From a virus (lineage: Duplodnaviria; Caudoviricetes): a stretch of DNA of 60,366 nt. Where the stretch lies: IMG/VR virus record IMGVR_UViG_3300036846_000361, positions 1 to 60,366 of that record, one strand, 5' to 3'. Shown here piece by piece: positions 13,766-29,138 of the stretch. Under the pieces are notes generated by a model. It saw nothing but the letters and a program-made list of their open reading frames with translations, was not told the origin of the DNA and did no database searches. Both the position numbers and the translations under genes were made by a program. Each line of letters starts with the position of its first letter. The stretch's first letter is position 1.

Positions 13766-13809
13766 TTCGGCTCCTTCGTTAGGCGACCGGCGAGCCGTTC
13801 CCGCCGGTT

Positions 13810-13837
13810 CTACCGGGATTCTACCGGACGCTACCGG
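13810..13837 (-). promoter_or_regulatory. Promoter region: three CCGGTAG repeats containing -10 TAGAAT (13818-13823)
   Basis: CTACCGG at 13810, 13821 and 13831 (10-11 bp phase). Confidence 0.55.
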
Positions 13838-14405
13838 GTCGCCGCGTTGAGTTCGCGCGATCTTAATATTCGGCCTCGATGGGCCGCGCGGCGCGATTAG
13901 CGATGAGTTGAGCGGCCGGTACGAAGCTTGATGGTGGTTGTGCCCGAGGTTGCGTTGGGTTGCGGCGAAGCGGATGCCGGCGGATGCCGCCCGGAGCCTG
14001 GCGGCTTCTCAACTCAACTCAATTCAAGGCAACCACGGAAACTGAACCGCAAAAATTGTGCCCTGCACAATGAACCGTGAAGGTTGTGCCAGTATGGTTA
14101 CAACTCAACCCTTATCAGTTCAACACTGAAAACGAAGTCTGGTTGGGTTATGCCTGTACAATTCATGTCAAACCACTAGAAAAGCTTGGTTGAGTTTTGC
14201 CTTGAGTTGAAAAACCACGAACCAGAGCGCGTATCCATGTCATATCAACCAAGAATCGAGTCGCGAAGTGTGTATATCGCAACTCAAATCAGTCGTCGCA
14301 TGTTAAATGATGGCAAAAAAAGGCCACCCAAAATCCACACAAACCCACAAATTCACACCCAAATCAACAGATTTCCAGGCAAAAAAAGTTGACCAACGAG
14401 TTCGG

Positions 14406-14433
14406 TAGGACCACCGTATGTTTACGGTAGAAT
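14406..14433 (+). promoter_or_regulatory. Rightward early promoter (TAGGAC-N16-TAGAAT)
   Basis: Same GG-TAGRRT -10 pattern as 23522 and 27888; a hairpin begins at the expected start site. Confidence 0.55.
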
Positions 14434-14438
14434 CGACC

Positions 14439-15082
14439 CGAGGTCTCCTCCGGAGACCTCGAAGTTGAATCCGAATCTTGAAAACTGACTTGTAGGGAGA
14501 GCGAAAGGGGAATCCCCTTCGCTCATGTTCCCGATTCCGGTAGGCAACTCTCGGAGATGAATCCCGGCGCGTAGGTAAGCGCCGCGCGTAGCGTCCGAGC
14601 CGAGCCGACTACCTCCCGCGACGGAGCGAAAGATGACTAGCGCGGCGGGAGGGACGAGACCGACCCGCTACTCAAGTAGCGTTGAAACGCCGGAATGTGA
14701 GGGCCTCAATCCACCGAGGAAGTAACGCCTATGAGTTGGGGTTCGAGAACCGAACCTTGAAAATGAGATCCCAAGTCCGGACGTAGCGCGCTCGACGACA
14801 TCGCAGCCGCGTACCCCGGAAGTTGACGCGGTTAGCCATACCGCACCAAGGGTAGGCTCGAAACTTGAGACTAGAGCCAAGAGAGAGGACAACTTCCGAC
14901 GGATCAAGAAACGCGCAAGCGTATATTGACCGCGCTACGGGCGGGCTTGAGGGGAAATGGTACCCCCCTCCTTACGGCCGAGCGGAGGGCAAAGGAAAGA
15001 CAATTCGAGCCTTTGCCCTCCGTTCATTAAGTACGGGCCAAGTCAGAAAAAGAGCCCGCATTTAATGAACGGATCCCCGTTC
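14439..15082 (+). ncRNA. Large structured non-coding RNA or structured early leader, unassigned family
   Basis: No convincing ORF; more than 10 hairpins plus long-range pairings 14485-14492/15039-15046, 14782-14790/14931-14939, 14817-14825/14890-14898. Confidence 0.65.
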
Positions 15083-15095
15083 AAAAGGAGGGAAA

Positions 15096-15401
15096 ATGGA
15101 CAAAGCGACCCAACGCCTACGGGCGCAGATCAAGTCCGAGCGTACAAAGAGAGGTCAACTCTCCCCGATTCATCCGAAATGGCTCGGGAAGAAAAACGGA
15201 CCATCTCAGAGAGTAACTCCGACAATCTGCGGCCATATCGAAGGCGGCGAGCAAATCCCGATCAAGCGTAAGCGAAAATCGGACAACTCGTACTATACGG
15301 TGATGATTATCGTTGGCGGAACGAGATGTACGAAACCAAGCGATATTCGGCATCCGCGCTACGGTCACCGTTGCCTCGATCATTCCGGGTGCGCCATCTA
15401 G
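15096..15401 (+). CDS. Basic hypothetical protein with C-terminal Cys/His cluster
   Basis: RBS AAAAGGAGGG; first ORF of the early region. Confidence 0.55.
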   Translation: MDKATQRLRAQIKSERTKRGQLSPIHPKWLGKKNGPSQRVTPTICGHIEGGEQIPIKRKRKSDNSYYTVMIIVGGTRCTKPSDIRHPRYGHRCLDHSGCAI

Positions 15402-15460
15402 CGATGGCCATCCCGGAGTGTCATCGACGACATTCCAATACCAACAAGGAGGGTACCGAA

Positions 15461-15610
15461 ATGGCAACTATCGCTGTCATCAAAACGACAAGCGGAAGTT
15501 ACAACGTCTTTGGAACGGAAGACGAGATGTTCGTCATCCAAGGCAACCTGACCTTCGAGCAACTGAAGAAGCTCAAGGTCGAGGTTGACAAGGCGGTGAA
15601 AGCTCGATGA
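15461..15610 (+). CDS. Early hypothetical protein
   Basis: ATG directly after motif 15448. Confidence 0.7.
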   Translation: MATIAVIKTTSGSYNVFGTEDEMFVIQGNLTFEQLKKLKVEVDKAVKAR

Positions 15611-15876
15611 AAACGGTAACGGTCCATTGTGACGCCGTTGACATCGAGGCGTTGATCGGCGCGGCTGATCTGCCGCTCGATCGGCTTCCCGATGTTCTCA
15701 TCGTGACCAATGATGAGAAGTGGGGCGACATCTTCTGGATCATGCCGGACATTCTCATGTTTGCCGGTGTTCCGGATGACCCTGAGTTGATCACGTTTCA
15801 GCGCGCGGTCGGAAGCGACATCGCAGAAGACGTGATCAACCGCGTTCGACGGATGTTCTGGGCAATTCAGCCGTGA
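15607..15876 (+). CDS. Early hypothetical protein
   Basis: ATGA-coupled. Confidence 0.65.
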   Translation: MKTVTVHCDAVDIEALIGAADLPLDRLPDVLIVTNDEKWGDIFWIMPDILMFAGVPDDPELITFQRAVGSDIAEDVINRVRRMFWAIQP

Positions 15877-15947
15877 TTGCGGGTGCCCGTCGAAAGACGG
15901 CATCCCGGAGTCATCGAACGATGCTCCAGTCCAAAAGGAGGGTACCA

Positions 15948-16208
15948 ATGAAGGTCAAGGCGATTTACCATCAGACCGAACCCGATGGAAAGCTTGTTCA
16001 TGTTGTCGATCATGACAACGGCGGCTTTGTGGTCTCATCGGAGAAGGTCGGCATCGCCGTTCAGAACTTCTTGAACGAAGCGACGAGTCTCGATATGCGT
16101 ACACTTCATACGCATCTGCTCTACGCCTTCAAGGATCGCTTCCAAGAAGAAGCAGACGCAGGCAACCATCCCACCCTGGACAATTGGCGAATCGACGAAC
16201 GGTCATGA
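15948..16208 (+). CDS. Early hypothetical protein
   Basis: ATG after motif 15937. Confidence 0.7.
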   Translation: MKVKAIYHQTEPDGKLVHVVDHDNGGFVVSSEKVGIAVQNFLNEATSLDMRTLHTHLLYAFKDRFQEEADAGNHPTLDNWRIDERS

Positions 16209-16285
16209 CACTCTACATCGTCACGACGTTCGCCATCGTCGCTTGGGGCGCTTTTGTCGCGTCGCTCTTGAGGTGGCTCGGATGA
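16205..16285 (+). CDS. 26-aa membrane peptide
   Basis: MTLYIVTTFAIVAWGAFVASLLRWLG, ATGA overlaps at both ends. Confidence 0.5.
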   Translation: MTLYIVTTFAIVAWGAFVASLLRWLG

Positions 16286-16458
16286 CGCAAATCCTGAAGT
16301 TCAGGGATGAACGCTTTCAACGCTGCCCAGAATGCGGAAGACCAACCGCACTTCTGAACAACGGACGGTTGAGACGACATTTCGTCGTTGACGAGAGCGG
16401 ACGGCATCTCTGCGTCGAACGAGCAATCGACCGGAAAGCATTGCGGGTGACCGGCTGA
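16282..16458 (+). CDS. Small Zn-finger-like protein
   Basis: CPECG...RRH...C pattern. Confidence 0.55.
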   Translation: MTQILKFRDERFQRCPECGRPTALLNNGRLRRHFVVDESGRHLCVERAIDRKALRVTG

Positions 16459-16517
16459 AAAGCCGGCATCCCGGAATGTCAGCCGGCATTTCGAACAACC
16501 CTAAAGGAGGGTACCGA

Positions 16518-17312
16518 ATGATCTATCTCGATGCGGAAGGCAATGAGTGGGAGTTCCGCTACATTGTCACGCAGACCGAGGATGAAGGCCCGGAGCGGTT
16601 GGAGTTTCGGGCACATGATCCGGAGCATCTCGACGACGCCTACAACCCTTGGCGTATTTGGAGCGAGAGCCTGCCGATCCTCAACGAAGCCTACAATCAC
16701 TTCCATGGCTTCTTGATCACGGCCGACATGAACCCGGACAACATCCCGACGCTCGCCGAAGCGTTCAGCAACATCCGACTCATCGCAGAGGAGGAGGACA
16801 ACGAGACGCTCAAGCACATCGGGGACATGGACGAGCCGTTGATCGCGCTCATCCGTGGAGCCCTTGAGGGCGACCTGTCTCCGAGCAATCGGGCGTTGCT
16901 GGCCCATCTCTGCGGCAAGACGATCACACTCGACACTGAGCCCGACGAGTACGAGTACAACGTCTCGCTACACGTCAAGGAGAAGGGCCAAGAAGTGTCC
17001 GAGTACCGGATGGTGATTGATTCCTTCCGGTTGTACTCTGAAAGCCCGTTGAACTTCGCCTTCGACCTCGAAGCGAAGATCATGAACATCGTCAACATGG
17101 GCAAGTATACGCGGCATGAAGTGGTCGCGTGGATCTCAACTGCCTCCGGCGATGAGCACTGGCTCATGACCTGGGCCAATGCGTCTGACCTGATCCTGCT
17201 GGAGCAGGCGTCGGCGCGCGGTTACGACGTCACGAGTCACTTCCAGAGCATCCAGGACGCGATGTCGATCGAAGGTCACAAGTTCGTCCGAGCACGAGCC
17301 GAGCGCAACTAG
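16518..17312 (+). CDS. Acidic early hypothetical protein
   Basis: ATG after motif 16506; 264 aa. Confidence 0.75.
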   Translation: MIYLDAEGNEWEFRYIVTQTEDEGPERLEFRAHDPEHLDDAYNPWRIWSESLPILNEAYNHFHGFLITADMNPDNIPTLAEAFSNIRLIAEEEDNETLKHIGDMDEPLIALIRGALEGDLSPSNRALLAHLCGKTITLDTEPDEYEYNVSLHVKEKGQEVSEYRMVIDSFRLYSESPLNFAFDLEAKIMNIVNMGKYTRHEVVAWISTASGDEHWLMTWANASDLILLEQASARGYDVTSHFQSIQDAMSIEGHKFVRARAERN

Positions 17313-17391
17313 CGCGTTCAGCGGCGGGGCAAGAAGAAAAGCTTGCCCGCGCCGGTGTCCAAAAGGCGCCATAACCAAAGGAGGGTACCGA

Positions 17392-17673
17392 ATGTCGTTT
17401 GTTCCCGATGCACAAGGAACAGCCAAGCGTCGCGAGCAGGATAAGGATATGATCCTGAATCCTGATCGTTGGCCTGTCTGGCCCAAGCTGCCGTTGAAAA
17501 GGCACGGCTATGAGCAGAATCATGGCTTCGCCTTCAACGGAAGCTTGAAAGACGACAACACACGTTCTCGCGTCTACCTGGCGACGATCTTCAGCGCCAT
17601 CGACGATGCGACGCTCTACATCGACTACCCCGACATCGATGCTCTACTCGATGACGGCTGGACGGTGGACTAG
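17392..17673 (+). CDS. Early hypothetical protein
   Basis: After motif 17380; WPVWPKLPLKR...LLDDGWTVD. Confidence 0.75.
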   Translation: MSFVPDAQGTAKRREQDKDMILNPDRWPVWPKLPLKRHGYEQNHGFAFNGSLKDDNTRSRVYLATIFSAIDDATLYIDYPDIDALLDDGWTVD

Positions 17674-17742
17674 TCAGCGGCAGGGGTTCACAGAACCCCT
17701 TGCCGGTGTCCATAAGGCCACCAGACCAAAAGGAGGGTACCA

Positions 17743-18030
17743 ATGGACTTTGTCGGACCAGGCTCCCGTAAAATCGGAGTCGGTTTGATGCGGATGTTCA
17801 AGTCCGGACACGAAGCGGCCAAGGTCTACCAGAAGACCAACGAAGGCATCAAGCTTCGCAAGTATCGCGAAGACAACGCCGACGTGGTAGCCGTCATCGA
17901 GATGGAGTCGTCACGTCCCACCGTCACCCGTACATTGATCGGCGCAGCAGTTGCAGGCCCGGTCGGTGCGATCGTTGGTCTCTCAGCACAGAAGAAGGAG
18001 ACCAAAACCGGGAAGGTGAGGGCAAGATGA
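17743..18030 (+). CDS. Early hypothetical protein with glycine-zipper segment
   Basis: After motif 17732; IGAAVAGPVGAIVG. Confidence 0.7.
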   Translation: MDFVGPGSRKIGVGLMRMFKSGHEAAKVYQKTNEGIKLRKYREDNADVVAVIEMESSRPTVTRTLIGAAVAGPVGAIVGLSAQKKETKTGKVRAR

Positions 18031-18302
18031 ACGAGATCATCCGCGCAGACGGCGGCGAGATGAACCCGACCACCGCCAAGGTGGTCGAGATCAGATTCGT
18101 CATCGACGGATCGTTCAAGACCGCCAACCTGATCGATGAAGTCTGTGACAACCTCGATTGGGTGTTCGCAGCCGTCGAACTGAACCCGGATGGATTCGGG
18201 CACACGGTTCCGGACATGAACGTCATGCGCACCGCTGCCTGGATGGACAGCGACGTCATGGCGGAGGTCGAGGAATCGCTGAAAAGCGGTGAGCCAAGGT
18301 GA
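18027..18302 (+). CDS. Early hypothetical protein
   Basis: ATGA-coupled. Confidence 0.6.
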   Translation: MNEIIRADGGEMNPTTAKVVEIRFVIDGSFKTANLIDEVCDNLDWVFAAVELNPDGFGHTVPDMNVMRTAAWMDSDVMAEVEESLKSGEPR

Positions 18303-18502
18303 AAGCTGAGCCTGGCAAGGTCGTACTCGTCTCCAGCATTCCGGGTTGCAACTTCTGCAATGACGGAACGCCAGGGCCGTACGACTTCAAGACGAGGATG
18401 GGCCCGTGGGCGAACGGTTGCGAGATGCACTATCGTCACCTTCGTGCTACCCCAGACCTCGGCGTCGGTATGGCTCAACTCTGGATCACAGAGGAGTCAT
18501 GA
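18299..18502 (+). CDS. Small Cys-containing hypothetical protein
   Basis: CNFC...YDFKT..GPWANGC..H. Confidence 0.65.
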   Translation: MKAEPGKVVLVSSIPGCNFCNDGTPGPYDFKTRMGPWANGCEMHYRHLRATPDLGVGMAQLWITEES

Positions 18503-18720
18503 TGGGAGCACACAGCCTAGCTGAAGCTCCGACACGGACGGTTCATGTCGTCCAGGTCTTGTCGAACGGCCGCATGATCTCTTTATGTGGCCGGGAAGCT
18601 GACGAGAGTTGGAAGCGCATCGCGCAGCACGACCAGGCGATCTTCGGCAAGGGACCGAGGTCAATCAGGGAAATGTTACCTGATCTGCGTCTCTGCGCTC
18701 TGTGTCTACCTCGATCATGA
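18499..18720 (+). CDS. Small Zn-binding hypothetical protein
   Basis: H...SLCG...CALC; RBS GAGGAG. Confidence 0.55.
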   Translation: MMGAHSLAEAPTRTVHVVQVLSNGRMISLCGREADESWKRIAQHDQAIFGKGPRSIREMLPDLRLCALCLPRS

Positions 18721-18875
18721 ACGGCATCGACATCCTCGTGATCGTGATCGTGCTCGCGATCGTGTTCGTCGGAGCGAATATGCTCGACAAGCACGAGACT
18801 GAGCTCGACGATGATGACGACATCGAGGATGAAGTAGCGAAAGCTCGCAAGCGCAAGCGTAACGGCGCAAGCTAG
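18717..18875 (+). CDS. 52-aa membrane protein (absent from ORF track)
   Basis: N-terminal TM, then acidic and basic tail; ATGA-coupled. Confidence 0.6.
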   Translation: MNGIDILVIVIVLAIVFVGANMLDKHETELDDDDDIEDEVAKARKRKRNGAS

Positions 18876-18943
18876 ACGGCACCCCGCGCAAGCGGGGCAC
18901 CGTGTGGCGTTCGCCACAGTACGAAACCAAAAGGAGGGTACCA

Positions 18944-19252
18944 ATGAAGAAGCTCCATCGCGAGAAGCTCGCAGATCTTGGCATCTCATCGAACAAGTAC
19001 GTCGTGCTCGAAGACGGGACGGTCATCTATGACAAGAACGACCGGCCCAACGGCGTACTGATTCCGATCATCTGGGGCATCACGCTCGAACACGATCGCT
19101 GGATGATGTATGTCGAGTACCAGACCGACGAGTTCGGTGGTCGTCCGCGTCATTACCTGCGCTGGTCGCAGGGTGAGAAGAACGACTTGTCGAGGCCATT
19201 CCTCCGGCAGCAGGATGCGATCGCTGCCGCGATCAGTTCGGTGTACGCATGA
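18944..19252 (+). CDS. Early hypothetical protein
   Basis: After motif 18933. Confidence 0.7.
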   Translation: MKKLHREKLADLGISSNKYVVLEDGTVIYDKNDRPNGVLIPIIWGITLEHDRWMMYVEYQTDEFGGRPRHYLRWSQGEKNDLSRPFLRQQDAIAAAISSVYA

Positions 19253-19512
19253 AGCCGAAAGAAGGTGACAAGGTCAAGGTCATCGACAGGCTCTCATCGC
19301 TCGGCGACGAAAGTGCTCCTGAGATCTGGATCGTCATCCAAGCTCACGACAATCTGGACGAATCCTGGGATCCGTTCGGTGAGTCCGCTTGGGCTCAAAA
19401 GGATCACGATACCGAAACCGGGCAAACCGGCGAATGGTACGTGATCTGCAAGACCGGCGAATGGATGGACGGCACGTGTAGCTTCGCCAGCTACGAGGTC
19501 GAGTCGCTATGA
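19249..19512 (+). CDS. Early hypothetical protein
   Basis: ATGA-coupled. Confidence 0.6.
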   Translation: MKPKEGDKVKVIDRLSSLGDESAPEIWIVIQAHDNLDESWDPFGESAWAQKDHDTETGQTGEWYVICKTGEWMDGTCSFASYEVESL

Positions 19513-19637
19513 AGCGAGGCAAGTATCTGCAGATCGGCTCGGGCAGCAGATCCCGCTCGATCGCCAAAGCAGAAGACAAGGCTCGCCGCTCTCGCAAGAA
19601 AGCAGACAAGAAGCAAGCACTCAAGGATCAATCCTGA
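19509..19637 (+). CDS. 42-aa basic peptide
   Basis: ATGA-coupled, K/R rich. Confidence 0.5.
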   Translation: MKRGKYLQIGSGSRSRSIAKAEDKARRSRKKADKKQALKDQS

Positions 19638-19714
19638 GCACTGCGCCTGCCCTCGGCAACGAGGGTTTGGCGGAGACCTCATGAGAGGCTCCAAACCAAA
19701 AGGAGGGTACCGAT

Positions 19715-19930
19715 TTGACGCGAAAGAAGCCGGCATACACACCGCCAAGGCTTCACGACCAATGCTTCATCGCGAAGACGTATGGCCCATGGTCGTCAGG
19801 GACTCGGGTCGAGATCATCAAGCTCGATATGCCTGCTGACTACGTGGTCGTGCGTCATACCTCGACAGGTGAGGAGTTCGAGATTGAACTCGATGTCCTC
19901 GTCAGGAAGCGAGACCGCAATCGTGACTGA
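19715..19930 (+). CDS. Early hypothetical protein (TTG start)
   Basis: After motif 19702. Confidence 0.65.
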   Translation: MTRKKPAYTPPRLHDQCFIAKTYGPWSSGTRVEIIKLDMPADYVVVRHTSTGEEFEIELDVLVRKRDRNRD

Positions 19931-20180
19931 ACTCACCGACGGCACCCGCATCCGCATCACGCAGAAGACCAAGCTATGGTATCCGAGCGTGGAGGCGAAT
20001 GTGGAGGTCGAACCTGGTCGCGAGTTCATCGCGATCGACAGGCCCGACGAGAACAATTACGGTTGGTGCCTGCCGGTGGTCGAGCCGGATGTGTACGCCA
20101 GCGATGTCGTCGAGATACACGACGACAGCATGATCGTAGTCTGCGATCCCGATTCGTTCGTGATTGTCGAGGAGAAATGA
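19923..20180 (+). CDS. Early hypothetical protein
   Basis: GTG start overlapping upstream gene end. Confidence 0.55.
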   Translation: MTELTDGTRIRITQKTKLWYPSVEANVEVEPGREFIAIDRPDENNYGWCLPVVEPDVYASDVVEIHDDSMIVVCDPDSFVIVEEK

Positions 20181-20383
20181 TCATCGACACGCCGGATGGG
20201 ATCGAAGCATACCGCATGCTCGCGATCTACCATCGGCTAAAGCTTGAGATGAAAGGAATCCGGTTCCGCATCTCGACCTTCGCCGTTGCGCGTCGCGAGT
20301 TGGGTATGAGCCCACGTACTCCCAGGGCCAAGGTTCTGGAAGCGTGGGAAGCGAAGATGAAGGAGAAGGGAATCAATGTCTAA
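20177..20383 (+). CDS. Early hypothetical protein
   Basis: RBS GAGGAG, ATGA-coupled. Confidence 0.65.
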   Translation: MIIDTPDGIEAYRMLAIYHRLKLEMKGIRFRISTFAVARRELGMSPRTPRAKVLEAWEAKMKEKGINV

Positions 20384-20564
20384 GCTGACAGTCACGTACG
20401 AGGCTGAGAGCATGGAAGACCTGGCTCAAGGTCTCGAAGCTCGGGCTGAGGAGTTGGAGCAGCAGGTCGGAAGCTCCAACCAGAGAAAAGGTCACCTGCT
20501 CAAGGCTGAGGCAGACGGCTACCGTGCCGCAGCTGAGATCGTCCGCAGAACGACGATCGGCTGA
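20376..20564 (+). CDS. Early hypothetical protein
   Basis: 62 aa, RBS GAAGGGA. Confidence 0.6.
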   Translation: MSKLTVTYEAESMEDLAQGLEARAEELEQQVGSSNQRKGHLLKAEADGYRAAAEIVRRTTIG

Positions 20565-20636
20565 CGATCCGGTGGGGTTGGGAAACCAACCCCTTCCGAA
20601 TCGCCAACTGGCGAGGAAACCAAAAGGAGGGTACCA

Positions 20637-21614
20637 ATGACAAGTGGAAAGCGGGACGATCTGTTCCGCAAGATCCAGGGACTCCTCGCAAAAGCCGAGG
20701 CAACCGAGCACGAAGGTGAACGTCAGGTGTTCATGGCGAAGGCCGATGAACTCATGATGAAGTACCGCATCGAGCTTTGGGAACTTCAGCAGCACGAGGC
20801 CGGTCGAATCTCCGAGCGCGAGCCGGTGGTCAAGGACTTTGACTACAGCTTCGCGTTTGAGTCGGGTCCATTCCCGGAGATCAGCGATGCGCTTTGGTCG
20901 CTGTTCTGCTCGACCGCAAGGCACGTCGGCTGCATCATCGTCTTCCACAAGCAGCACTGGAGCGGTGAGAAGAAGCAGTACATGTCGGCTGTCGTCCCGG
21001 TGATCGGCACCGAGAGCGACCAGGGTTACTTGACGCTGCTGTTCTCGTCACTCATGACGCAGCTGGTAGAGCAGATCCGGCCCAAGTACGATCCGGGCAA
21101 GGACTACTACCAGAACCTGCGCATGTTCAAGGAAGCGGGCTGGAACTGGCTGGAGACAGCCAAGGCCATGCAGGATGCCGGCTTCCATACCGACGTGACG
21201 AACGACAAGGCTCGTCACCTGACCGCTCACGCGTACCGCCGCTGGTGCAAGAAGATGGGCATCGACCAGAACTACTCCAACTGGAAGACGTACCGCCGCA
21301 ACTTCGCGGATGGCTTCGTCCACCGGGTGGCCGCTCGCTTCGTCGAGATGGCCGATGCTCAGAAGAAGGTCAAGAGCGACAGTGGCACCGGCTTCGATCT
21401 GGTCCTGCGCGAGCAGCATCAGATCAACCTGGACTTCCTGAATCAGATGTTCCCTGTGACGGGCACCGGCAGAGCCGTGACCGTCGCTCGCGATTCCCGC
21501 AAGTTCGACTCGTCTGCCTATGGCAGTGGTCGCGCAGCGGGCGATCGAGCGAACATCAGCGGCAACCCTGGCCGGGGAGTTCGGCCAGGTGGAGGTCGGC
21601 AACTGAAAAGTTGA
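20637..21614 (+). CDS. DUF2786-domain protein
   Basis: N-terminal KIQGLLAKAE...FMAKADELMMKYRI and C-terminal AY.SGRAAG.RA pattern. Confidence 0.8.
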   Translation: MTSGKRDDLFRKIQGLLAKAEATEHEGERQVFMAKADELMMKYRIELWELQQHEAGRISEREPVVKDFDYSFAFESGPFPEISDALWSLFCSTARHVGCIIVFHKQHWSGEKKQYMSAVVPVIGTESDQGYLTLLFSSLMTQLVEQIRPKYDPGKDYYQNLRMFKEAGWNWLETAKAMQDAGFHTDVTNDKARHLTAHAYRRWCKKMGIDQNYSNWKTYRRNFADGFVHRVAARFVEMADAQKKVKSDSGTGFDLVLREQHQINLDFLNQMFPVTGTGRAVTVARDSRKFDSSAYGSGRAAGDRANISGNPGRGVRPGGGRQLKS

Positions 21615-21697
21615 CGATCCGGTAGGAGCCTCATTGCGGCGGGGCTCCGTCCGAATCGCCAATAGTTGGCGGTTGAACAAACCCAAAGGAGGGTACC

Positions 21698-22306
21698 ATG
21701 GAACGGACACCGATCCCGCAGGAGTTGCGGGATTCCGGTCCACTCGCCTCGCCAGCGCAGGTCTCATATCTGAAGGCTCTGCGTGACGGCAAAACCCTGA
21801 GCTCACTAACTCAGGAACAAGTCGAGTGGCTCATCTCGACCGACTTCACCACGATCCCGAAGCGGCGCGCAAGCTCCGTCATCGAGACGCTGGTGGGGCT
21901 GCCTTGGAAGCCGAAGAACGAGCAAGAGGCAGCGCAGGTCGAGGCGAGAGGCGCAGGTCTGCCGGTGTCGATGAACGATCTGCCTGACGGCTACTACGCC
22001 GTCAAGGGTGTCGAAGGTCACAAGAACGACATCTCGTTCTTCCGCCTGCGCTCACCCAAGCAGGGCAACTGGGTCGGCTACCAGTTCACCGATCAGGTTG
22101 TGGGTCATGGGAAGCGGTATCCTGTCAAGGAAGCCGCCACCCGCGAGAAGATCCACGGCATGATCAAGGAACAGGGAGTCACCGAGTGCCGGCAGTTGTA
22201 CGGCCAGGAAATCGGTAGTTGCGGCCGTTGCGGTCGCGAACTCACCGACGACACCAGCCGCGCTCGGGGCATCGGCCCCGACTGCTGGGCGATCATGGGA
22301 GGTTGA
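21698..22306 (+). CDS. DUF6011-type Zn-finger protein
   Basis: C-terminal CGRCGRELTDDTSRARGIGPDC. Confidence 0.8.
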   Translation: MERTPIPQELRDSGPLASPAQVSYLKALRDGKTLSSLTQEQVEWLISTDFTTIPKRRASSVIETLVGLPWKPKNEQEAAQVEARGAGLPVSMNDLPDGYYAVKGVEGHKNDISFFRLRSPKQGNWVGYQFTDQVVGHGKRYPVKEAATREKIHGMIKEQGVTECRQLYGQEIGSCGRCGRELTDDTSRARGIGPDCWAIMGG

Positions 22307-22307
22307 C

Positions 22308-22583
22308 ATGGTTCTGCAGAAGGTCGATGGCGTTCAGATCTATGACGACAAGAACAAGCGGGTGTTTCTGAACACCCGAGTCGTCTCGTCAACGAACGTC
22401 GAGTGGGTCGGTTGGCCCGAGTCGGGTGAACCGATCATGTTCGTGCGGTACAGTTCCGGCAAGCTCTATGGATACCTCGGCGTCAGCCGCCAGCGCGCGG
22501 TCGCCGCTGCGTACTCATCGAGCGTCGGCGGCTACATCGCCCAGCGCGTCAAGCCGAAGTTCCAAGTTGTACAGATCAGCTAG
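22308..22583 (+). CDS. KTSC-domain protein
   Basis: VSSTNVEWVGW...VRYSSGKLYGYLGV...SSVGGY fits the KTSC pattern. Confidence 0.65.
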   Translation: MVLQKVDGVQIYDDKNKRVFLNTRVVSSTNVEWVGWPESGEPIMFVRYSSGKLYGYLGVSRQRAVAAAYSSSVGGYIAQRVKPKFQVVQIS

Positions 22584-22647
22584 TTGCGGCGGACCAATCG
22601 AGAGATTGGCCGCCCGGAGCTAACTGCTCCAGAAAGGAGGGTACCAA

Positions 22648-23238
22648 TTGGACATCGAGAAGGAATGGCGGCGTGATCCGCCGATCGAGCCAATGACTTC
22701 GATGCCGGCACTTTGGCACGACTTCAAACGGCGTCGAGCGGATCCGCAGTCTCCCATCCATCGGTTCAGGGACAACATCCCTGACGCCTGCGCTCTGGAC
22801 GGGTCGGCACATGCAGCTTTGCGCCGAGCCGTCCGCAGTATCAGGCCGAACGGAAAGATGCACAATCATCAGTCGAAAGTCTCACCGGCTCTGCCGCAGT
22901 ACGAGGCGACGCTGATTGAGCATATGAACGTGATCATTCAGATGGACACCTTCAATCGGCTGTACACGATGCTCGGTCTTCTGAAGACTCCGGGCATCGG
23001 TCCGATGACCATCTACGACGTAGCGGTGCGCTTCGGTGCCTGGCTTGGGTTGAAGCCCGAGAAAATCTATGTCCATGCTGGTACGTCGGCTGGACTGAAG
23101 GCGCTCGGCATTAAGCCTGACGGACACAGTGTCCCGATGGAGTTGCTGCCGAGGATTCTGAGACGCAAGGATCCGGATGAGGTCGAAGACTTCCTCTGTA
23201 CATACCGAGTCGCATTTGAAAGGATGAGGGATGCCTGA
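22648..23238 (+). CDS. HhH-motif protein, DNA glycosylase / amino acid:DNA transferase-like fold
   Basis: LLKTPGIGPMTIYDVAVRFG...IYVHAGT...EDFLC. Confidence 0.5.
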   Translation: MDIEKEWRRDPPIEPMTSMPALWHDFKRRRADPQSPIHRFRDNIPDACALDGSAHAALRRAVRSIRPNGKMHNHQSKVSPALPQYEATLIEHMNVIIQMDTFNRLYTMLGLLKTPGIGPMTIYDVAVRFGAWLGLKPEKIYVHAGTSAGLKALGIKPDGHSVPMELLPRILRRKDPDEVEDFLCTYRVAFERMRDA

Positions 23239-23425
23239 CTTCCGTATCACGATCGAACTGGTAGATGTCAGCGGCGATCAAACCGACGAACTGGCCAAGG
23301 AAATCGAAGATGACTATGGTCAGGACTTCGGCATCAACGACGGTGACTTCATAGTACGCATCTCGCAGAAGGTCGGCCAGAACTACTTTGGCCGCGACCC
23401 TGGCGACGACGTCATCCAGACGTAG
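23231..23425 (+). CDS. Acidic hypothetical protein
   Basis: 64 aa, RBS GAGGG. Confidence 0.6.
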   Translation: MPDFRITIELVDVSGDQTDELAKEIEDDYGQDFGINDGDFIVRISQKVGQNYFGRDPGDDVIQT

Positions 23426-23498
23426 TTGCGGGCAGGGCGGGTAGCGCCGCCCCACCCGGAATCTCGTATGGATTCCCGTTTGCCCTGGAAAATTGGGG

Positions 23499-23527
23499 TA
23501 GACGTATGGGTGAGTCTTAGGTAGGCT
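23499..23527 (+). promoter_or_regulatory. Promoter TAGACG-N17-TAGGCT
   Basis: Matches the 27865-27893 pattern; upstream of the 23570 gene. Confidence 0.5.
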
Positions 23528-23569
23528 TACTCAGGTTGGCCGTAATCTATCTCCAAGGAGGGAGCACCC

Positions 23570-24052
23570 ATGGCCAGTAGTGTGAATTTCGCCCAGCTTG
23601 TCAAGCTGGCGAAGCAGGGAATGGGCCACAGCGCGGCAGCCGCCGAGTTGGGCGTCACCGTCGGGCAGATCAGTTCGCTGGTCTTCTCGAAGGCTCTGGT
23701 CGAAGCAGGTCAGTACGACGAAGTGACCAAGGTCACTCCGGCCGTCATCGTCCGTCTCAAGGATGACGAGGGCAACCGCTGGGAACTGATCGCGGCCCGC
23801 ACCGGCAAGACGGTGGGCGAGGTCAAGGACCTGTACGTCGAGGGTGGCGGCGATCTGAACGGTGGATCGCGAACGTCATCGCCGGGAACGAACCGTGCGT
23901 CTGGTCGCAAGACCAAGTCGGCTCCGGCTGCCAAGTCGGGCGCCAAGAAGAAGACGGCAGGCCGCAAGGCCAAGGCGTCTTCGGCACGGCCGGTTGGTCG
24001 CGCTCGCACGCTCGCTGAGCGGCGTCGGTCGCGGTCGTCCAACCCCTCGTAG
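23570..24052 (+). CDS. Tandem-HTH DNA-binding protein with histone-like basic tail
   Basis: GMGHSAAAAELGVTVGQI and RWELIAARTGKTVGEVKDLY HTH-like segments; K/R/A-rich C-terminus. Confidence 0.7.
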   Translation: MASSVNFAQLVKLAKQGMGHSAAAAELGVTVGQISSLVFSKALVEAGQYDEVTKVTPAVIVRLKDDEGNRWELIAARTGKTVGEVKDLYVEGGGDLNGGSRTSSPGTNRASGRKTKSAPAAKSGAKKKTAGRKAKASSARPVGRARTLAERRRSRSSNPS

Positions 24053-24093
24053 CGGCGGCCATCGAGGCTACCAGATCCGGTGACTCGGGTGAA

Positions 24094-24354
24094 TTGGAGG
24101 AACTTCTCCACCCCGGTCGCCGGGTCTGGGTCGTTGCGAAGGCTGAAGAGAGAGACGGATGGATCATACCGGCGTCTGTTTACTCGTGTGACATCCGTAG
24201 CTTCAAGCAGTTCCTCCCGCGCGGTATTTTCAACTCTGAGCGTGGCACAGTTGAGCGAAAGCAGTCGCTCGTACAACTGTACACTGATCCCGGCGGGTAT
24301 CGCACGATTGCCGTCGCGAACATCAGGATGAAAGATCCCACGAAGGCTAGGTGA
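24094..24354 (+). CDS. Hypothetical protein
   Basis: 86 aa ORF ending just before element 24357; start uncertain. Confidence 0.45.
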   Translation: MEELLHPGRRVWVVAKAEERDGWIIPASVYSCDIRSFKQFLPRGIFNSERGTVERKQSLVQLYTDPGGYRTIAVANIRMKDPTKAR

Positions 24355-24423
24355 GACTGCGGGCGGGCTGGTAGCAGCCTTGCCCGGAGCTTCATCACGA
24401 AGTTCCATACAGAAGGGGTACCT

Positions 24424-24681
24424 ATGGACGAGTATGTTGATACACTACCCGTCTACACAGCGAAGCGAAGTGAGTCATTCCCTTCGTTTCTCGTTGTGAT
24501 GTGCGGGCGCGAGGACTGTCCAGGTACCAAGGCTGACAGGCCGTTCCTCGTGAGTCAACGCGAATGGATGCGCCCGATTCATAGAGAATCGCGGAGCGGC
24601 AAGCCATTCGTCATCACCGGAAGATCCTGCCCATATTGCTTCAGGGCGGGACGGCTTCCGAAGCGCAGCGCGATCCGGTAG
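24424..24681 (+). CDS. Zn-finger hypothetical protein
   Basis: CGREDC...CPYC; variant motif GAAGGGGTACC upstream. Confidence 0.65.
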   Translation: MDEYVDTLPVYTAKRSESFPSFLVVMCGREDCPGTKADRPFLVSQREWMRPIHRESRSGKPFVITGRSCPYCFRAGRLPKRSAIR

Positions 24682-24748
24682 GATTCCGGTAGCGCGCGCA
24701 AAAGTTCGCGACGACAAAAGGTAGCCGTTCTACCCGGCGTTGGCGCGA

Positions 24749-24810
24749 TGGAGGGGAGGGAAGTCCAGGTCGAGCGTTGGTACCCTCCACCTGGCTTCCC
24801 TCCCACTCTA
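24749..24810 (+). promoter_or_regulatory. Long hairpin whose loop carries the antisense of the early RBS motif (candidate sRNA or leader)
   Basis: About 21-bp stem; loop 24771-24788 ends in TTGGTACCCTCC. Confidence 0.6.
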
Positions 24811-24845
24811 CACAAGCTTGGCCGTATTACAACAAAGGAGGAGGT

Positions 24846-25175
24846 ATGCCAAGGAAAAGAAGGGAGGCTGCATCGACCCACGTTACCTTTGTGGGTCCTG
24901 ACAAGCCTCCCCGGAATAGCCCCGGTGTAAGTTGGGGCATCCGACTCCAACCGCTCGTTCAGAATCCTGGGCAATGGGCTGAGGTCGCGGTGTTCGACAC
25001 CCCGATGCAAGCTCAGCAGGCTCAGGCGAACCTGGTCAAGCGGGAACGAGTTGGGATCAATATTCCGATGAGTGGCGGCGAATGGGAGTTCGCAGCACGC
25101 GATTGTACCCTGTTCGCCGTCTATCGAGGAGGTCAAAAGCGCCGTGGCTCACGTAGCGTTCGCCGAGCTAGCTGA
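24846..25175 (+). CDS. Hypothetical protein
   Basis: RBS AAAGGAGGAGG; NPGQWAEVA...WEFAAR. Confidence 0.7.
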   Translation: MPRKRREAASTHVTFVGPDKPPRNSPGVSWGIRLQPLVQNPGQWAEVAVFDTPMQAQQAQANLVKRERVGINIPMSGGEWEFAARDCTLFAVYRGGQKRRGSRSVRRAS

Positions 25176-26943
25176 ACGCGGTGACCGCTGTGTTGTGATC
25201 TTCCGGTACAGCCAAGAGGCTGTCTACGCAATCAAGCGCGTTCCCGGCGCTCGGTTTGTCCCTCACGACAAGGCCGGATCCGTCGGGCAGGCTCACTGGA
25301 CTCTGCCTCTCGACCTTGACGTCATGCGTACCCTGCGCTCGGAGTTCGGTGACGGACTTCAGCTGGGGGATGCGATCAAGGCGTGGGGTCGAGGGCAGGT
25401 CCAGAAGGAGCGCAACCTAACTTCACTCGCCGTGAGCGATGATATCGCGATCGACAAGTTGAAGATAGCGAAGCTCCTGCCGGACCTGACCGAATGGTTC
25501 CGACCGTACCAGCGGGCGGACGTCAAGTTCATGGCGACGACGAACTGTCTGAACCTGAACGAGCCGCGCTTGGGCAAGACGACTGAGGTGATCGGTTCCG
25601 TCTTTGAGGCGGGACTACAGAAGATGCCTCAACTAGCGATCGTGCCCAAGTCTACGATCGACTCCATTTGGAGAATGGAGATCGAGCGGTGGACGAAGAT
25701 CCCGGTGGTAGCGTATCACGGCGATCTCAATGCCCGCGAGAAAGCGGACTGCGAGCGAGTTGTTGAACGCTGCCTCGATAAGGGCAAGCCGTTCTGGTTC
25801 GTGACGACGGCGGACATGATCCGTCGCGGATCGTACCCAGGCGTCGATCAGGTTCCGGTCTGGGGCTCGGTCACCATTGACGAGTTCCACAAGACCGGGT
25901 TGCCTGAGATCAGGAACGTGTTTCCGAAGGCGGTAGGCAAGATCGCGGCTGAACGGAAGTACGCACTCAGCGGCACCCCGATGGGCGGCAAGCCGATCAA
26001 GTTGTGGGGCGCTCTGCACTTCATCGAACCTAACCAGCATACGTCGAAGTGGACGTGGGCTGCGCAATGGCTCGTGATCAATACGGTGTGGGGCAATCAC
26101 AAGGAGATAGGCGGCATCAAGCGAGGTCGTGAAGACGACTTCTACCGGATGCTGTCCAAGCATGCCATCCGTCGGCTCCGGAGCGAGGTATTGCCCGAGC
26201 TACCGGAGAAACAGTGGGTGGATGTCTGGTGCAAGATGACTGCCGGCCAGGCGGCTCAGTACAACGAGTTCGCCAAGCAGGCAGAAATCCGCATCGACGA
26301 GTTCCACCTATCTGCTACGAGCGTGCTCGCGGAGTATGTCCGGCTCAAGCAGTTCGCCAATCATAAGAACAAGGTCGAAGTGCTGGGCATGGATAAGGAG
26401 ACGGGAAAGCTTGACTTGAAAGTCAGAGCCACCGAGGAATCAGGGAAGCTGCCAGAGCTACTCGAACGGTTGTACGAGTGCGGCATCGATCCTGAGGAGC
26501 CGGAAGGTGATGAACAAGCGATCGTGGCTTCTCAGTTCCGCGAGACCGCCGAGATGGTTCACCGCCATCTTACCTCTCAGGGTATCGGATGTGCGATCAT
26601 CAGCGGTAGGGTGCCGCAGAAGGAACGCAATCGGCTTCAGGCCGAGTTCCAGAGCGGCAAGCTCCGCGTTATGATCGTCGTCACCGCTGCTGCCGGCGTT
26701 GGCATTACGCTGAACAAGGCGGCTTCGGTCCATGTTCTCGATGAGACCTGGAACCCCGACGATCAGGAGCAGCTGACCGATCGCGCAGTCGATACGAATG
26801 AGTACCATCAGGTCACGGTGTTCGTGTACCGGAGCCGTGGCACTGTGGAGCAGTACATTAAGGAAGTGAACGACGAGAAGTGGGACGTGAACAAGGACAT
26901 CCTCGATCTGCGGAGGCAAGGCTTCCGCGCCATGAAAGGGTAA
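25144..26943 (+). CDS. SNF2-family helicase
   Basis: EPRLGKT, TIDEFH, LSGTP, ESGK, GVGITL, WNP..EQ..DR motifs. Confidence 0.9.
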   Translation: MAHVAFAELAERGDRCVVIFRYSQEAVYAIKRVPGARFVPHDKAGSVGQAHWTLPLDLDVMRTLRSEFGDGLQLGDAIKAWGRGQVQKERNLTSLAVSDDIAIDKLKIAKLLPDLTEWFRPYQRADVKFMATTNCLNLNEPRLGKTTEVIGSVFEAGLQKMPQLAIVPKSTIDSIWRMEIERWTKIPVVAYHGDLNAREKADCERVVERCLDKGKPFWFVTTADMIRRGSYPGVDQVPVWGSVTIDEFHKTGLPEIRNVFPKAVGKIAAERKYALSGTPMGGKPIKLWGALHFIEPNQHTSKWTWAAQWLVINTVWGNHKEIGGIKRGREDDFYRMLSKHAIRRLRSEVLPELPEKQWVDVWCKMTAGQAAQYNEFAKQAEIRIDEFHLSATSVLAEYVRLKQFANHKNKVEVLGMDKETGKLDLKVRATEESGKLPELLERLYECGIDPEEPEGDEQAIVASQFRETAEMVHRHLTSQGIGCAIISGRVPQKERNRLQAEFQSGKLRVMIVVTAAAGVGITLNKAASVHVLDETWNPDDQEQLTDRAVDTNEYHQVTVFVYRSRGTVEQYIKEVNDEKWDVNKDILDLRRQGFRAMKG

Positions 26944-26945
26944 AG

Positions 26946-27200
26946 ATGATTCACTTCATCGTGCTCTTGGTGGCTTTTGGTTGGGCGATTATGACCGCGA
27001 TTCCCAAGGCTGCGGAGCTTCGTAGCCAAGGGGAGCGGAAGAACGGCCCAGCTAAGGCTCGCCAGGGCGGGAAACAGGCTCCTACAAGCTCTCCGAGGGT
27101 GCGTAGGACGGTCTCCGCGCCGCGCGTCCTGTCGAGCGCGGACTACAAGGAGATGGACGAGTGGTTTTCGGAAGGTAGCAAGCCCGAAGACTACAAGTGA
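26946..27200 (+). CDS. Membrane-anchored hypothetical protein
   Basis: N-terminal hydrophobic helix, RBS AAAGGG. Confidence 0.55.
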   Translation: MIHFIVLLVAFGWAIMTAIPKAAELRSQGERKNGPAKARQGGKQAPTSSPRVRRTVSAPRVLSSADYKEMDEWFSEGSKPEDYK

Positions 27201-27279
27201 GCGGGTAGCGGGTGAGGCCGACAATTGAGCGGCCCACCCCGGTGCTCGTGTCGAGTACCAGAACCGAAAGGAGGGTACC

Positions 27280-27423
27280 ATACTCAAAAAGCTGTCACAG
27301 AGTAGGACGGCCAGATGGGAACGTGCTGCTACCTCTCTGCGCGAGGCAGCCGACAAGGTGGAAGCTCTATTCTCTGAGTTGGATGAACCGCTCAACGAGT
27401 TGCGTGACCTGCAGGCGGAGTAA
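27280..27423 (+). pseudogene. ATA-initiated or decayed helical ORF after motif 27270
   Basis: ILKKLSQSRTARWERAATSLREAADKVEALFSELDEPLNELRDLQAE*; ATA sits where ATG sits at 21698. Confidence 0.45.
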
Positions 27424-27453
27424 ATCAATGACGCTTGGAAGGAGGTAATCGGT

Positions 27454-27672
27454 ATGGCATCCCTTGCCAAGCCGAGGCCAGACGGCTCCGTCCATTTTGT
27501 CTCGCAGTCAGTAGACAACGGGAAGTGGACGACGCTGTGTGGCAAGCAGGTGAAGGCGAGTACGTGGGTGTTCACACACGCGTACGACGATCGGATTGTT
27601 GAACTGAAGCAATCCGGTCGTGCCCGGAGCGAATTGCGCTCTCTGGGCTACGTCTGTCACCGCTGTTTCTGA
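27454..27672 (+). CDS. Small Zn-binding protein
   Basis: H...TLCG...CHRC; RBS AAGGAGG. Confidence 0.65.
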   Translation: MASLAKPRPDGSVHFVSQSVDNGKWTTLCGKQVKASTWVFTHAYDDRIVELKQSGRARSELRSLGYVCHRCF

Positions 27673-27715
27673 GCCTGTAACGGGTGTACCATTCCCCTCA
27701 AGTCAACCCGACAAC

Positions 27716-27836
27716 CTAAATAACGTACGCGAGGCGAGAGAACAGACTAACCGCTGATCTGGCTCTCGGGCGCGTATACGCGCGGAGGACCGGCTTTCAT
27801 TTCAAAACAGTTCGGAGCCTCGCGTACGTTATTTAG
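27716..27836. repeat. 20-bp perfect inverted repeat with central 14-bp palindrome (candidate origin)
   Basis: CTAAATAACGTACGCGAGGC (27716-27735) / GCCTCGCGTACGTTATTTAG (27817-27836); GCGCGTATACGCGC at 27770-27783. Confidence 0.85.
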
Positions 27837-27864
27837 ATGGGAAAGCCCCGGAAACCGAGCCGAT

Positions 27865-27893
27865 TAGACTTCCATCCGCCCGTCCGGTAGAGT
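27865..27893 (+). promoter_or_regulatory. Promoter TAGACT-N17-TAGAGT for the replication operon
   Basis: Sigma-A-like spacing, same pattern as 23499. Confidence 0.5.
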
Positions 27894-27980
27894 CTCCCGG
27901 TCGGTCGAGACTGGCTTTCCTCCGCTTTGTTTTGACCCCCTAACTTGAACTTGAACCCTAGCCCCAGAGGGAGCAGGCAC

Positions 27981-29138
27981 ATGTCTTCTATTCAGCGAAA
28001 TCGTACACGTGCGGAACGAACGAAGCATCGGGAGACCCGTAGCGATTTGAGGAGGCCCGCGCCCAGCTCACTGCGCGGTGGCGTTGCGGGTCTCCCAATG
28101 TTGCGTACGTCCGAGCGTAGTACGTTCAAGCGGTGCCATTGGAAGTGGTACTGGGAGTTCGAGGAAGTGCTCAAGCCCAATACCGACGTTCCGCCCCTAC
28201 GCTTCGGATCGCTCGTTCATAAGGCACTCGCGGACTACTACAAACCAGGGATCAAGCGAGGCCCGAAACCTGCCGCGAGCTTCCGCAAATACTACGACGC
28301 GGAACTGAAGCTACAAGAGCAGTTCGGCTTCCGTGTACCGGACGTTGAGGCCGACGAGATATGGGTCGAGGCAGGCGAGCTAGGCGAGGCGATGCTGACT
28401 CATTACGTCGAGCACTACGGTCACGACGATGAGTGGGAGATCATCGTAACCGAGCAGCCGTTCGAGCAAGTCGTCTACCACGAGCGCCGAACCGACAGGT
28501 GGCCATACTCGAAACGCGAGCCCTTGTTCATCTACGTCGGCATCCTCGACGGGATCTGGCGCAACCGGCGAACGAAGAAACTCAGCATCGTAGACCACAA
28601 GACGGCGAAGGCAATCAACGTCATGTACCTCGCGCTCGATTTACAGGCGACCGGCTATTGGACGTGGGGGCTTGACTGGATCTACGAGAAGGGATTGCTG
28701 AAGCCGAACGAGAAGCCAGCTGGCATGATGTATAACCACCTGCGCAAGGCTCTCCCCGACTCGCGACCGTACGAGCTAGTGAACAACCGGAGAATCTACC
28801 TCAACAAGGACGGCGCGTACAGCAAGCAGCAACCGCCCGCCTACTTCAGCCGCACTCCGATCTACCGCGATTGGAATGAGCGCGAGGTAGCGCGATCACA
28901 AGTGCTCGCAGAATTTGCCGATATAGCGCGGATCCGCGCGGAAGGGAAACAGCCAGACGGATCACCGCCGGTCGCCGCATATAAGAACCAAGGACAGTTT
29001 ACATGTCCAGGGTGCTGGCTATTCGATTCCTGCGAGCTTCATGAAATCGGTGCCGACTGGAAGGAGATGCTAGAGCATAGTACAAAGAAGTGGGATCCGT
29101 ACACGGAGCACGAAGTGTACGCTGGAGAGACGAAATGA
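27981..29138 (+). CDS. Cas4/RecB-like PD-(D/E)XK exonuclease
   Basis: RTSERSTFKRC, FGSLVHKAL, GILDG...IVDHKT, LQATGY, C-terminal Cys cluster. Confidence 0.85.
   Translation: MSSIQRNRTRAERTKHRETRSDLRRPAPSSLRGGVAGLPMLRTSERSTFKRCHWKWYWEFEEVLKPNTDVPPLRFGSLVHKALADYYKPGIKRGPKPAASFRKYYDAELKLQEQFGFRVPDVEADEIWVEAGELGEAMLTHYVEHYGHDDEWEIIVTEQPFEQVVYHERRTDRWPYSKREPLFIYVGILDGIWRNRRTKKLSIVDHKTAKAINVMYLALDLQATGYWTWGLDWIYEKGLLKPNEKPAGMMYNHLRKALPDSRPYELVNNRRIYLNKDGAYSKQQPPAYFSRTPIYRDWNEREVARSQVLAEFADIARIRAEGKQPDGSPPVAAYKNQGQFTCPGCWLFDSCELHEIGADWKEMLEHSTKKWDPYTEHEVYAGETK

Follow-up and report, generated by a model that had tools for sequence, protein, structure and literature searches.

A hairpin lying between the early genes and the replication genes of a soil phage presents in its loop the exact complement of the ribosome-binding site (RBS) motif carried by the early genes, and in related phages the loop and the motif were found to change together. 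From these sequence comparisons, it was concluded with fair confidence that the complementarity between loop and RBS is a selected feature, which would act at the RNA level and on the coding strand. Since related phages keep a matching loop/motif pair, the loop probably controls the translation of the gene set marked by the motif. The sequence-only reading followed up here had proposed an sRNA or leader, made at the early-to-middle transition, that pairs with about 11 early RBSs and forms one system with the twin-hairpin elements and a large RNA. The part of this interpretation that stood is the selected complementarity, on the evidence of loop/motif co-variation, covariation in the stems, the strand bias due to G-U pairs and a parallel in cluster K mycobacteriophages; from it, we infer transcription of the hairpin, its timing, an action in trans and a repressive effect.

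The hairpin and the early RBS motif

The DNA stretch analyzed (the window) is a complete virus record (60,366 bp) and has direct terminal repeats. The terminase, portal, protease, sheath, baseplate, tape-measure and tail-fibre genes lie on the minus strand. On the plus strand, between ~15.1 kb and 43 kb, small early genes come first and replication genes after, the latter in the order SNF2 helicase, PD-(D/E)XK exonuclease, primase-helicase and DNA polymerase. Between the divergent gene blocks, a region of ~1.2 kb (13766-14956) contains no ORF of at least 100 aa and has a pronounced AT skew (0.23-0.33); the early promoters or a non-coding RNA may be located here. A megablast search gave no match to a close cultured relative, and among cultured phages the best match of the helicase, at 30% identity, was to actinophages. 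The region 23500-26500 was contained in three soil DNA metagenome runs, one of which may be its source, and in no RNA run. No tRNA or tmRNA gene was found in the window or adjoining the hairpin of the relative L040.

The hairpin (24749-24810) consists of a 5' arm (24749..24770, +) in which T 24764 is bulged, an 18-nt loop CGAGCGTTGGTACCCTCC (24771..24788, +) and a 3' arm (24789..24810, +) in which A 24805 is unpaired and which is not followed by a U-run. In the stem, GGGAGGGAAG (24754-24763) pairs with CTTCCCTCCC (24795-24804) and CCAGGT (24765-24770) with ACCTGG (24789-24794), giving a core of 16 bp with one bulged T that five outer pairs extend to 21 bp. Checking of the fold thus agreed with the earlier description of a stem extendable to ~21 bp around an 18-nt loop. 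The plus-strand fold of 24735-24830 reached -53.3 kcal/mol (z = -5.16), and none of 200 shuffles was as good. The last 12 nucleotides of the loop (24777-24788), adjoining the 3' arm, are TTGGTACCCTCC, the exact complement of GGAGGGTACCAA. The loop had been called weakly self-pairing, and indeed five weak internal pairs appear in its minimum free energy (MFE) fold, the 12 anti-motif bases having a mean unpaired probability of 0.51. This partial self-pairing counts against the reading in which the loop pairs with RBSs.

All the genes flanking the hairpin are on the plus strand. The last gene on its 5' side (24424..24681, +) encodes an 85-aa Cys-rich product and has a degenerate motif, AAGGGGTACCTATG. 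On the 3' side, gpX (109 aa; 24846..25175, +) has the RBS GGAGGAGGT, which does not belong to the motif class. Orthologues of gpX are found 3' of the element in the relatives L009, L040, L042 and L043; the protein could be assigned to no Pfam or PHROG family, and the atlas clusters nearest to it are without names. The ORF of the SNF2-family helicase, whose start codon is tentative (25072..26943, +), then opens the replication block. The 20-nt stretch 3' of the hairpin is unique in the window. A sequence of the form TTGGCCGTAWT occurs at 23536-23546 and, as TTGGCCGTATT, at 24818..24828 (+), the latter being kept in L009; each copy is located ~20 nt 5' of an SD outside the early motif class, and the sequence may function as a promoter or in processing. 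GYYGTATAC-like sequences were seen 5' of the helicase RBS in L019.

The short loop and U-run of an intrinsic terminator were not found at the hairpin, whose loop is 18 nt and whose 3' flank is ACTCTACACAAGC, and a plus-strand terminator scan of 13500-28500 gave no site there. In the same interval, two sigma-70-like promoters were predicted, fewer than in shuffles and none near the hairpin. A search for a T7-type RNA polymerase gave no match in the window; as the control genomes were also without a match, this blank is uninformative. With Rfam, no family, C4 included, reached the gathering score in the whole window. At E values up to 1, the region 24600-24900 gave only miRNA-precursor matches (17.7-22.9 bits, against gathering scores of 58-100), and no match was obtained in L040 or in the locus of the mycobacteriophage Adephagia discussed below.

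A motif scan of both strands of the whole record found exact GGAGGGTACCAA five times in forward orientation and once in reverse, the latter at 24777-24788. In addition, it found four copies of a variant ending in CCGA (GGAGGGTACCGA) and two of a variant ending in CCAT (GGAGGGTACCAT). For the core GGAGGGTACC, there are 11 forward sites and one reverse site, whereas the control pattern, read backwards, was absent in both orientations. For an exact 12-mer, 0.0037 copies are expected by chance on one strand. With up to two mismatches, 18 matches were obtained against 2.87 ± 1.93 in shuffles, none of 100 shuffles reaching 18. The sequence-only reading had counted five sites complementary to the loop, four others tolerated through a G-U wobble and a single exact reverse copy, and each count was recovered; in the four wobble sites, the variable A/G base of the motif faces a loop U.

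The forward copies are more than plain SD sequences: the consensus is ACCAAAAGGAGGGTACC[A/G]A, also written GGAGGGTACC[A/G]A, with the start codon immediately after. In 10 of the 11 forward copies an ATG, TTG or TG follows within 0-2 nt, and all 11 lie in the plus-strand early/replication block. Taken as putative targets and given with the predicted energy of their duplex with the loop, the exact copies are located at 15937..15948, 18933..18944 and 20626..20637 (each followed by TG; -26.6 kcal/mol), 17732..17743 (TG; -26.9 kcal/mol) and 22636..22647 (TTG; -24.0 kcal/mol). The GGAGGGTACCGA copies are at 15448..15459 (aATG; -22.6 kcal/mol), 16506..16517 (ATG; -24.1 kcal/mol), 17380..17391 (ATG; -26.1 kcal/mol) and 19702..19713 (tTTG; -24.9 kcal/mol), and the GGAGGGTACCAT copies at 21688..21699 (G; -24.7 kcal/mol) and 27270..27281 (-24.6 kcal/mol), all on the plus strand. 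The copy at 27270, which has a twin hairpin upstream, is followed by ACTC and not by a canonical start: in 27270-27421, ATA stands in place of the start codon and the frame stays open for 47 codons of coiled-coil-like sequence. The start may be non-canonical here, or the gene may have been disabled recently.

The predicted duplexes thus range from -22.6 to -26.9 kcal/mol over the 11 motif sites, versus -14.0 to -16.8 kcal/mol at seven non-motif RBSs of the window, among them that of gpX just downstream (-15.6 kcal/mol), and a background of -11.2 ± 3.1 kcal/mol over 8,620 windows. In the early gaps (15350-22640), every motif RBS is preceded by a twin hairpin, made of a GC-rich short-loop stem and then a small stem that starts with CCGGWG and contains G-U pairs; the same design was found in L010-L012 and L019. 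Middle and late genes of both strands use another conserved RBS, GGAGGGAGCA, which forms a second class with sites at 23557, 29139, 29831, 35024, 36442 and 40710 (+) and at 56523, 12817, 6229 and 3831 (-).

Loop and motif in related phages

Relatives were gathered by means of the helicase, which gave 31 IMG/VR loci and 44 metagenome loci, several of the latter duplicating viral ones. Among them, 12 distinct genomes carry a repeated RBS motif of the GGAGGGT type, and 10 of these 12 hold the complement of their own variant: the phage of the window, L009, L040 (L041 has the same element), L042, L043, L019, L020, L048, L010 and L045. The loop follows the motif in three variants, TACCAA occurring with TTGGTA, TACA with TGTA and TCA with TGA. 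In the co-variation check that the sequence-only reading had called for, loop and motif thus change together in these three variants. The complement was exposed in a hairpin loop in eight of the ten genomes and in a single-stranded linker between two hairpins in the other two. In the eight looped cases it lies on the 3' side of the loop, adjoining the 3' arm in seven; in L045, its last base falls inside this arm.

In the clade of the window, the motif is GGAGGGTACCAA or GGAGGGTACCAT. At 82% helicase identity, L009 carries TGGTACCCTCC looped on a 14-bp stem, and at 66%, L040 and L041 carry CATGGTACCCTCC looped on a 12-bp stem. The two linker cases are L042 (65%), with TGGTACCCTCC in the linker and ATGGTACCC in the second loop, and L043 (60%), with ATGGTGCCCTCC in the linker and ATTGGTACC in the second loop. 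L019, L020 and L048 (42-44% helicase identity) present TTGTACCCTCC for the motif GGAGGGTACA, in a 14-nt loop on a stem of 23-24 bp directly 5' of the helicase. For the motif GGAGGGTCA, L010 (46%) has TTGACCCTCC in its loop, and L045 (45%) has TGACCCTTC. The distance from the element to the helicase is 4.4 kb in L010 and ~60-110 nt in L019, L020 and L045.

When all loops were paired with all sites, every loop paired longest with the sites of its own clade. The pairing lengths were 10.5-12.8 nt with own sites versus 7-10.4 nt with others in the clade of the window, 9.1-9.7 versus 7.0-7.2 for L010 and 9.4-10.7 versus 7.1-9.0 in the L019 clade. Furthermore, in three whole records the sense and antisense copies numbered 15/1, 13/1 and 5/1, and each time the antisense copy was the hairpin.

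Two relatives, L011 and L012, are on one record of 129,757 bp in which 20 sense copies and no antisense copy were found; a plain tetraloop hairpin stands there 5' of the homologous gene whose product starts with MPR. This record contains two diverged genome copies of ~65 kb on one contig, both with the GGAGGGTCA motif. As some relatives have the motif without its complement, the element is dispensable and accessory.

Several other candidates were set aside. In a group with the motif GGAGGTTCA, the L035 record has five forward copies and one reverse copy, the latter in apparently coding sequence, and the L016 record has five forward and none in reverse. For GGAGGTCAC, no reverse 9-mer was found within the loci L057-L060. 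L013 and L017 were left out: CCTCC occurs in the loop, yet there is no repeated motif. In L040, a segment resembling a tRNA T-arm, GGGTTCGACTCCC, closed by GCGC/GCGC, lies 3' of the hairpin (9725-9765); ARAGORN and Rfam found nothing in it.

A second element was found before the first early gene of the window. A small hairpin in the leader (14949..14971, +), with the stem GAGGGG / CCCCTC, has a loop and 3' arm that together read ATGGTACCCCCCTCC (14957-14971, +), a near anti-motif with an insertion of three C. Homologous leader elements are TTGGTACCCCCTCC in the L009 record and TTGACCCTCC in the L010 record, each with the spacer of its own clade, and a shared flank, CCTCCTTACGG, joins them to that of the window; the homologues were located in L099 (reverse strand) and L101. 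A second reverse copy of the L010 record, at 64146, is without a clear hairpin and was later read as a homologue of the leader element. Because of these leader copies, complements of the phage's own RBS are present at both ends of the early block in this phage family.

The leader copies and the genes next to the elements bear on the possibility that the complement acts only in cis, pairing through a long-range helix or pseudoknot with one RBS of the same transcript and gating that gene. Its partner would then be the next gene downstream or, for the leader copy, the first early gene, and the other motif sites would not be targets. Several relatives fit such an arrangement. In the MFE folds, the leader element of the L009 record pairs with the canonical RBS, ~130 nt away, that serves the first early gene, and the single-stranded TGGTACCCTCC of L042 pairs with GGAGGGAACCA, the RBS downstream; in L010, L019 and L020, the next RBS, ~50-90 nt downstream, is canonical; and in L040 it is GGAGGGTACT, with which pairing would include one G-U. 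The window itself has a cis anti-SD, CTCCCTCC, on the minus strand, where it precedes the RBS at 3831 by 32 nt. As the next RBS is complementary in L010, L019, L020, L040 and partly in L042, cis action is equally possible for the element. However, the downstream RBS is a poor partner in the window (GGAGGAGGT, at the energy given above) and in L009 (GGAGTGGGGT), and 11 loop bases are identical between these two phages although their stems have diverged. The gpX RBS has thus diverged while the loop was conserved, which favours targets elsewhere, and we consider an exclusively cis role to be unlikely.

Structure, strand and the cluster K parallel

Alignment of the hairpins of the window, L009 and L040 left 23 of the 43 positions of the window invariant (44 alignment columns), and 11 of these 23 are the contiguous anti-motif. 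Despite the divergence, each of the three sequences forms a stem of 12-21 bp. As the MAFFT alignment of these stems is out of structural register, no count of pairs is given for this clade. In the L019 group, two-sided compensatory changes were observed in 4 of 24 pairs, and 98.6% of the cells are paired.

These data can be set against a purely structural role, in which the hairpin would be a stem protecting a 3' end, an RNase III site or a terminator without U, its loop having no pairing function. Strong hairpins do occur in every early intergenic gap, the homologous MPR-starting gene of L011/L012 is preceded by the plain tetraloop hairpin, and the stems, at 21-24 bp, have the length that RNase III requires. 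Nevertheless, such a role leaves unexplained why the loop should contain 10-13 nt complementary to an RBS, why this complement is the most conserved part while the stems drift, and why it follows the motif variant in three clades and recurs, in the same arrangement, in cluster K1. Nor is there a U-run after the stem. A signal of structure only therefore seems to us to have little chance of being correct.

In five of the eight hairpins, the gene-sense strand folds 6-15 kcal/mol more stably than the opposite strand, because of G-U pairs. Both strands of L009 fold equally well, and in the window and in L040 the opposite strand is slightly more stable, by ~3 kcal/mol, so that the strand argument rests on the relatives. 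An antisense transcript would show GGAGGGUACCAA in its loop and could serve as a decoy titrating the 30S subunit or a RegA-/CsrA-like repressor. Decoys with GGA in loops are known (CsrB, RsmZ), and the folds of the window and L040 would agree with one. Against it stand the less stable minus-strand folds of the five relatives, the plus-strand orientation of all flanking genes, the location of the copy of L042 and L043 in a linker and not in a loop, and a search for an antisense promoter at the hairpin of the window that found none. A minus-strand decoy is thus highly improbable.

The anti-motif itself showed only two substitutions: in L043 an A facing U has become G, in L045 a C facing G has become U, and in both cases the pairing with the RBS is retained as a G-U wobble. 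These changes argue for RNA pairing and against a double-stranded DNA operator, bound by a protein in either orientation, whose reverse copy might, for example, act as a roadblock where the early region ends: in a DNA site, the two substitutions would be mismatches. The G-U pairs of the stems likewise point to RNA, and the forward motif sits on RBSs, away from promoters. In favour of an operator, GGTACC is palindromic in the window, and part of what has been published on cluster K mycobacteriophages is compatible with it.

In these phages, the passages of Pope et al. 2011 (PMC3203893) that deal with the start-associated sequences (SAS) record a single site in opposite orientation without explanation and do not decide between a protein and an RNA as the partner that binds SAS. 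The ESAS inverted repeats are regarded there, and in the corresponding passages of PMC11373665, as promoters and as sites for proteins. In papers of 2024 and 2025, the role of SAS is still termed unknown where it is mentioned, and a 2025 survey of 188 cluster K genomes calls, in its remarks on the subject, for functional tests (PMC12699233). In a full-text search, no paper came up that connects SAS with an antisense partner, a search on phage sRNA and anti-SD gave nothing relevant, and no description in print of an element like the hairpin of the window was found.

The genome of Anaya was found to contain 16 forward SAS sites and one reverse copy, GGCCTCCTATCCC, in the gap between gp96 and gp97. 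The core of this copy, CCTCCTATCC, forms a 10-nt loop on a GCGCGG/CCGCGC stem within a longer stem. The gene 3' of this hairpin has no SAS and the last forward site lies upstream, which also speaks against an exclusively cis role. The hairpin region is conserved in 178 phage records. Among 11 cluster K phages examined, the anti-SAS loop was present in five: Anaya (L085 39850-39902), Adephagia (L086 391-443), Peanam, LilPharaoh and Curiosium (loci L087, L089 and L095). The five loops are unchanged except for one extra C in LilPharaoh, and compensatory changes were seen in 2 of the 17 stem pairs. The loop was absent from Cain, Amohnition, Shandong1, Keshu, SirPhilip and Pixie; in Cain, ~15 SAS copies and no reverse copy were found. 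The Adephagia hairpin is located in the gap between genes 92 and 93, 3' of a canonical terminator, and late transcription of this phage is described as starting between the same two genes in the relevant passage of PMC11373665. Between the gene-92 terminator and the hairpins, four tandem GA(C/T/A)GCCCGCC units were noticed (L086 230-275).

The reverse copy would thus be exposed as a loop by an inverted repeat in eight of the ten genomes of the helicase set and in five cluster K phages, an arrangement that a duplex operator does not need. Together with the wobbles, this makes an operator quite improbable in our opinion.

The SAS and the motif of the window are alike in being conserved, 12-13 nt long, inclusive of the SD, in one orientation and often located behind an inverted repeat, 0-9 nt before the starts of a subset of non-structural genes. 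The K1 phages also resemble the phage of the window in having a single copy of opposite orientation in a hairpin loop. In contrast, the cluster K consensus is GGGATAGGAGCCC and its phages are unrelated temperate siphoviruses; moreover, the published description of ESAS is of repeats at the DNA level that carry SigA-like promoters, whereas the upstream hairpins of the window contain G-U pairs and look RNA-like. The window therefore shows what typifies SAS, an asymmetric SD motif before non-structural starts and in one orientation, and shows neither the cluster K consensus nor descent from these phages. Judged by its sequence, its motif system is an analogue of SAS and not a member.

Proposed mechanism and known systems

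The conserved single-stranded complement and the co-variation of seed and target are those expected of a trans-acting base-pairing sRNA. We propose, with an about even chance of being right, that a plus-strand RNA pairs with the RBSs of the class and represses the translation of the motif-bearing early genes. On the gene-sense transcript, the hairpin would hold the RBS complement in its single-stranded loop. The complemented site comprises the SD with a fixed spacer and reaches into the first bases of the start codon, and the loop could pair with the motif RBSs of the early genes over 11-12 bp. As an RBS pairs with 16S rRNA over roughly 8 bp (an estimate), the loop might outcompete this pairing. 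Binding of the 30S subunit would then be blocked, and the mRNA may be exposed to decay or to Rho polarity.

Being located at the end of the motif block and 5' of the gpX and helicase genes, the hairpin could accumulate during expression of the next gene class, either in the form of a leader or as a stem-loop that is processed and stable, and the early class would be shut off as a set. The position at the end of the early block, together with the start of the late transcript in Adephagia, suggests a role in timing. With one loop for at least 11 targets, trans action would need such accumulation. Occlusion of the class RBS by the loop nevertheless appears to be the most economical mechanism.

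More tentatively, and with some doubt, an anti-tag loop of this kind may switch a whole privately tagged gene class, may have arisen independently in the soil myovirus group and in cluster K1, and may be the missing partner of SAS. If this is true, it would answer for a role of SAS that has been open since 2011. It also offers a testable hypothesis in phages that grow in culture, are open to engineering in Mycobacterium smegmatis and find use in phage therapy work. For individual phage genes, antisense control is classical; a loop that matches the RBS shared by an entire gene class would, if true, represent a new way of timing phage genes after transcription. In addition, RBS/anti-RBS pairs that differ between relatives by one or two spacer bases are possible orthogonal translational switches.

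Among known systems, the c4 antisense RNA of P1/P7 (immI) and the CI RNA of P4 are structured phage RNAs that pair with an RBS region of the same operon, and in c4-type RNAs the loop and the target co-vary between related phages, which sets the specificity. The element of the window similarly exposes a segment complementary to an RBS and co-varying with it among relatives. It differs in that c4 has two pairing segments for one target (icd/ant) and is excised by RNase P, whereas the element has one loop and 11 potential targets and gave no Rfam C4 match. In cis anti-SD or loop-RBS pseudoknots, such as that of IncI-alpha repZ, an upstream pyrimidine-rich segment pairs with its own SD; here, in contrast, the adjoining RBS is not the best partner in the window or in L009, and the complement includes the class-specific spacer. 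Finally, the RegA protein of T4 occupies the initiation regions of many early mRNAs and thereby lowers their translation. The proposed effect of the hairpin resembles that of RegA, with an RNA loop as the putative agent in place of a protein.
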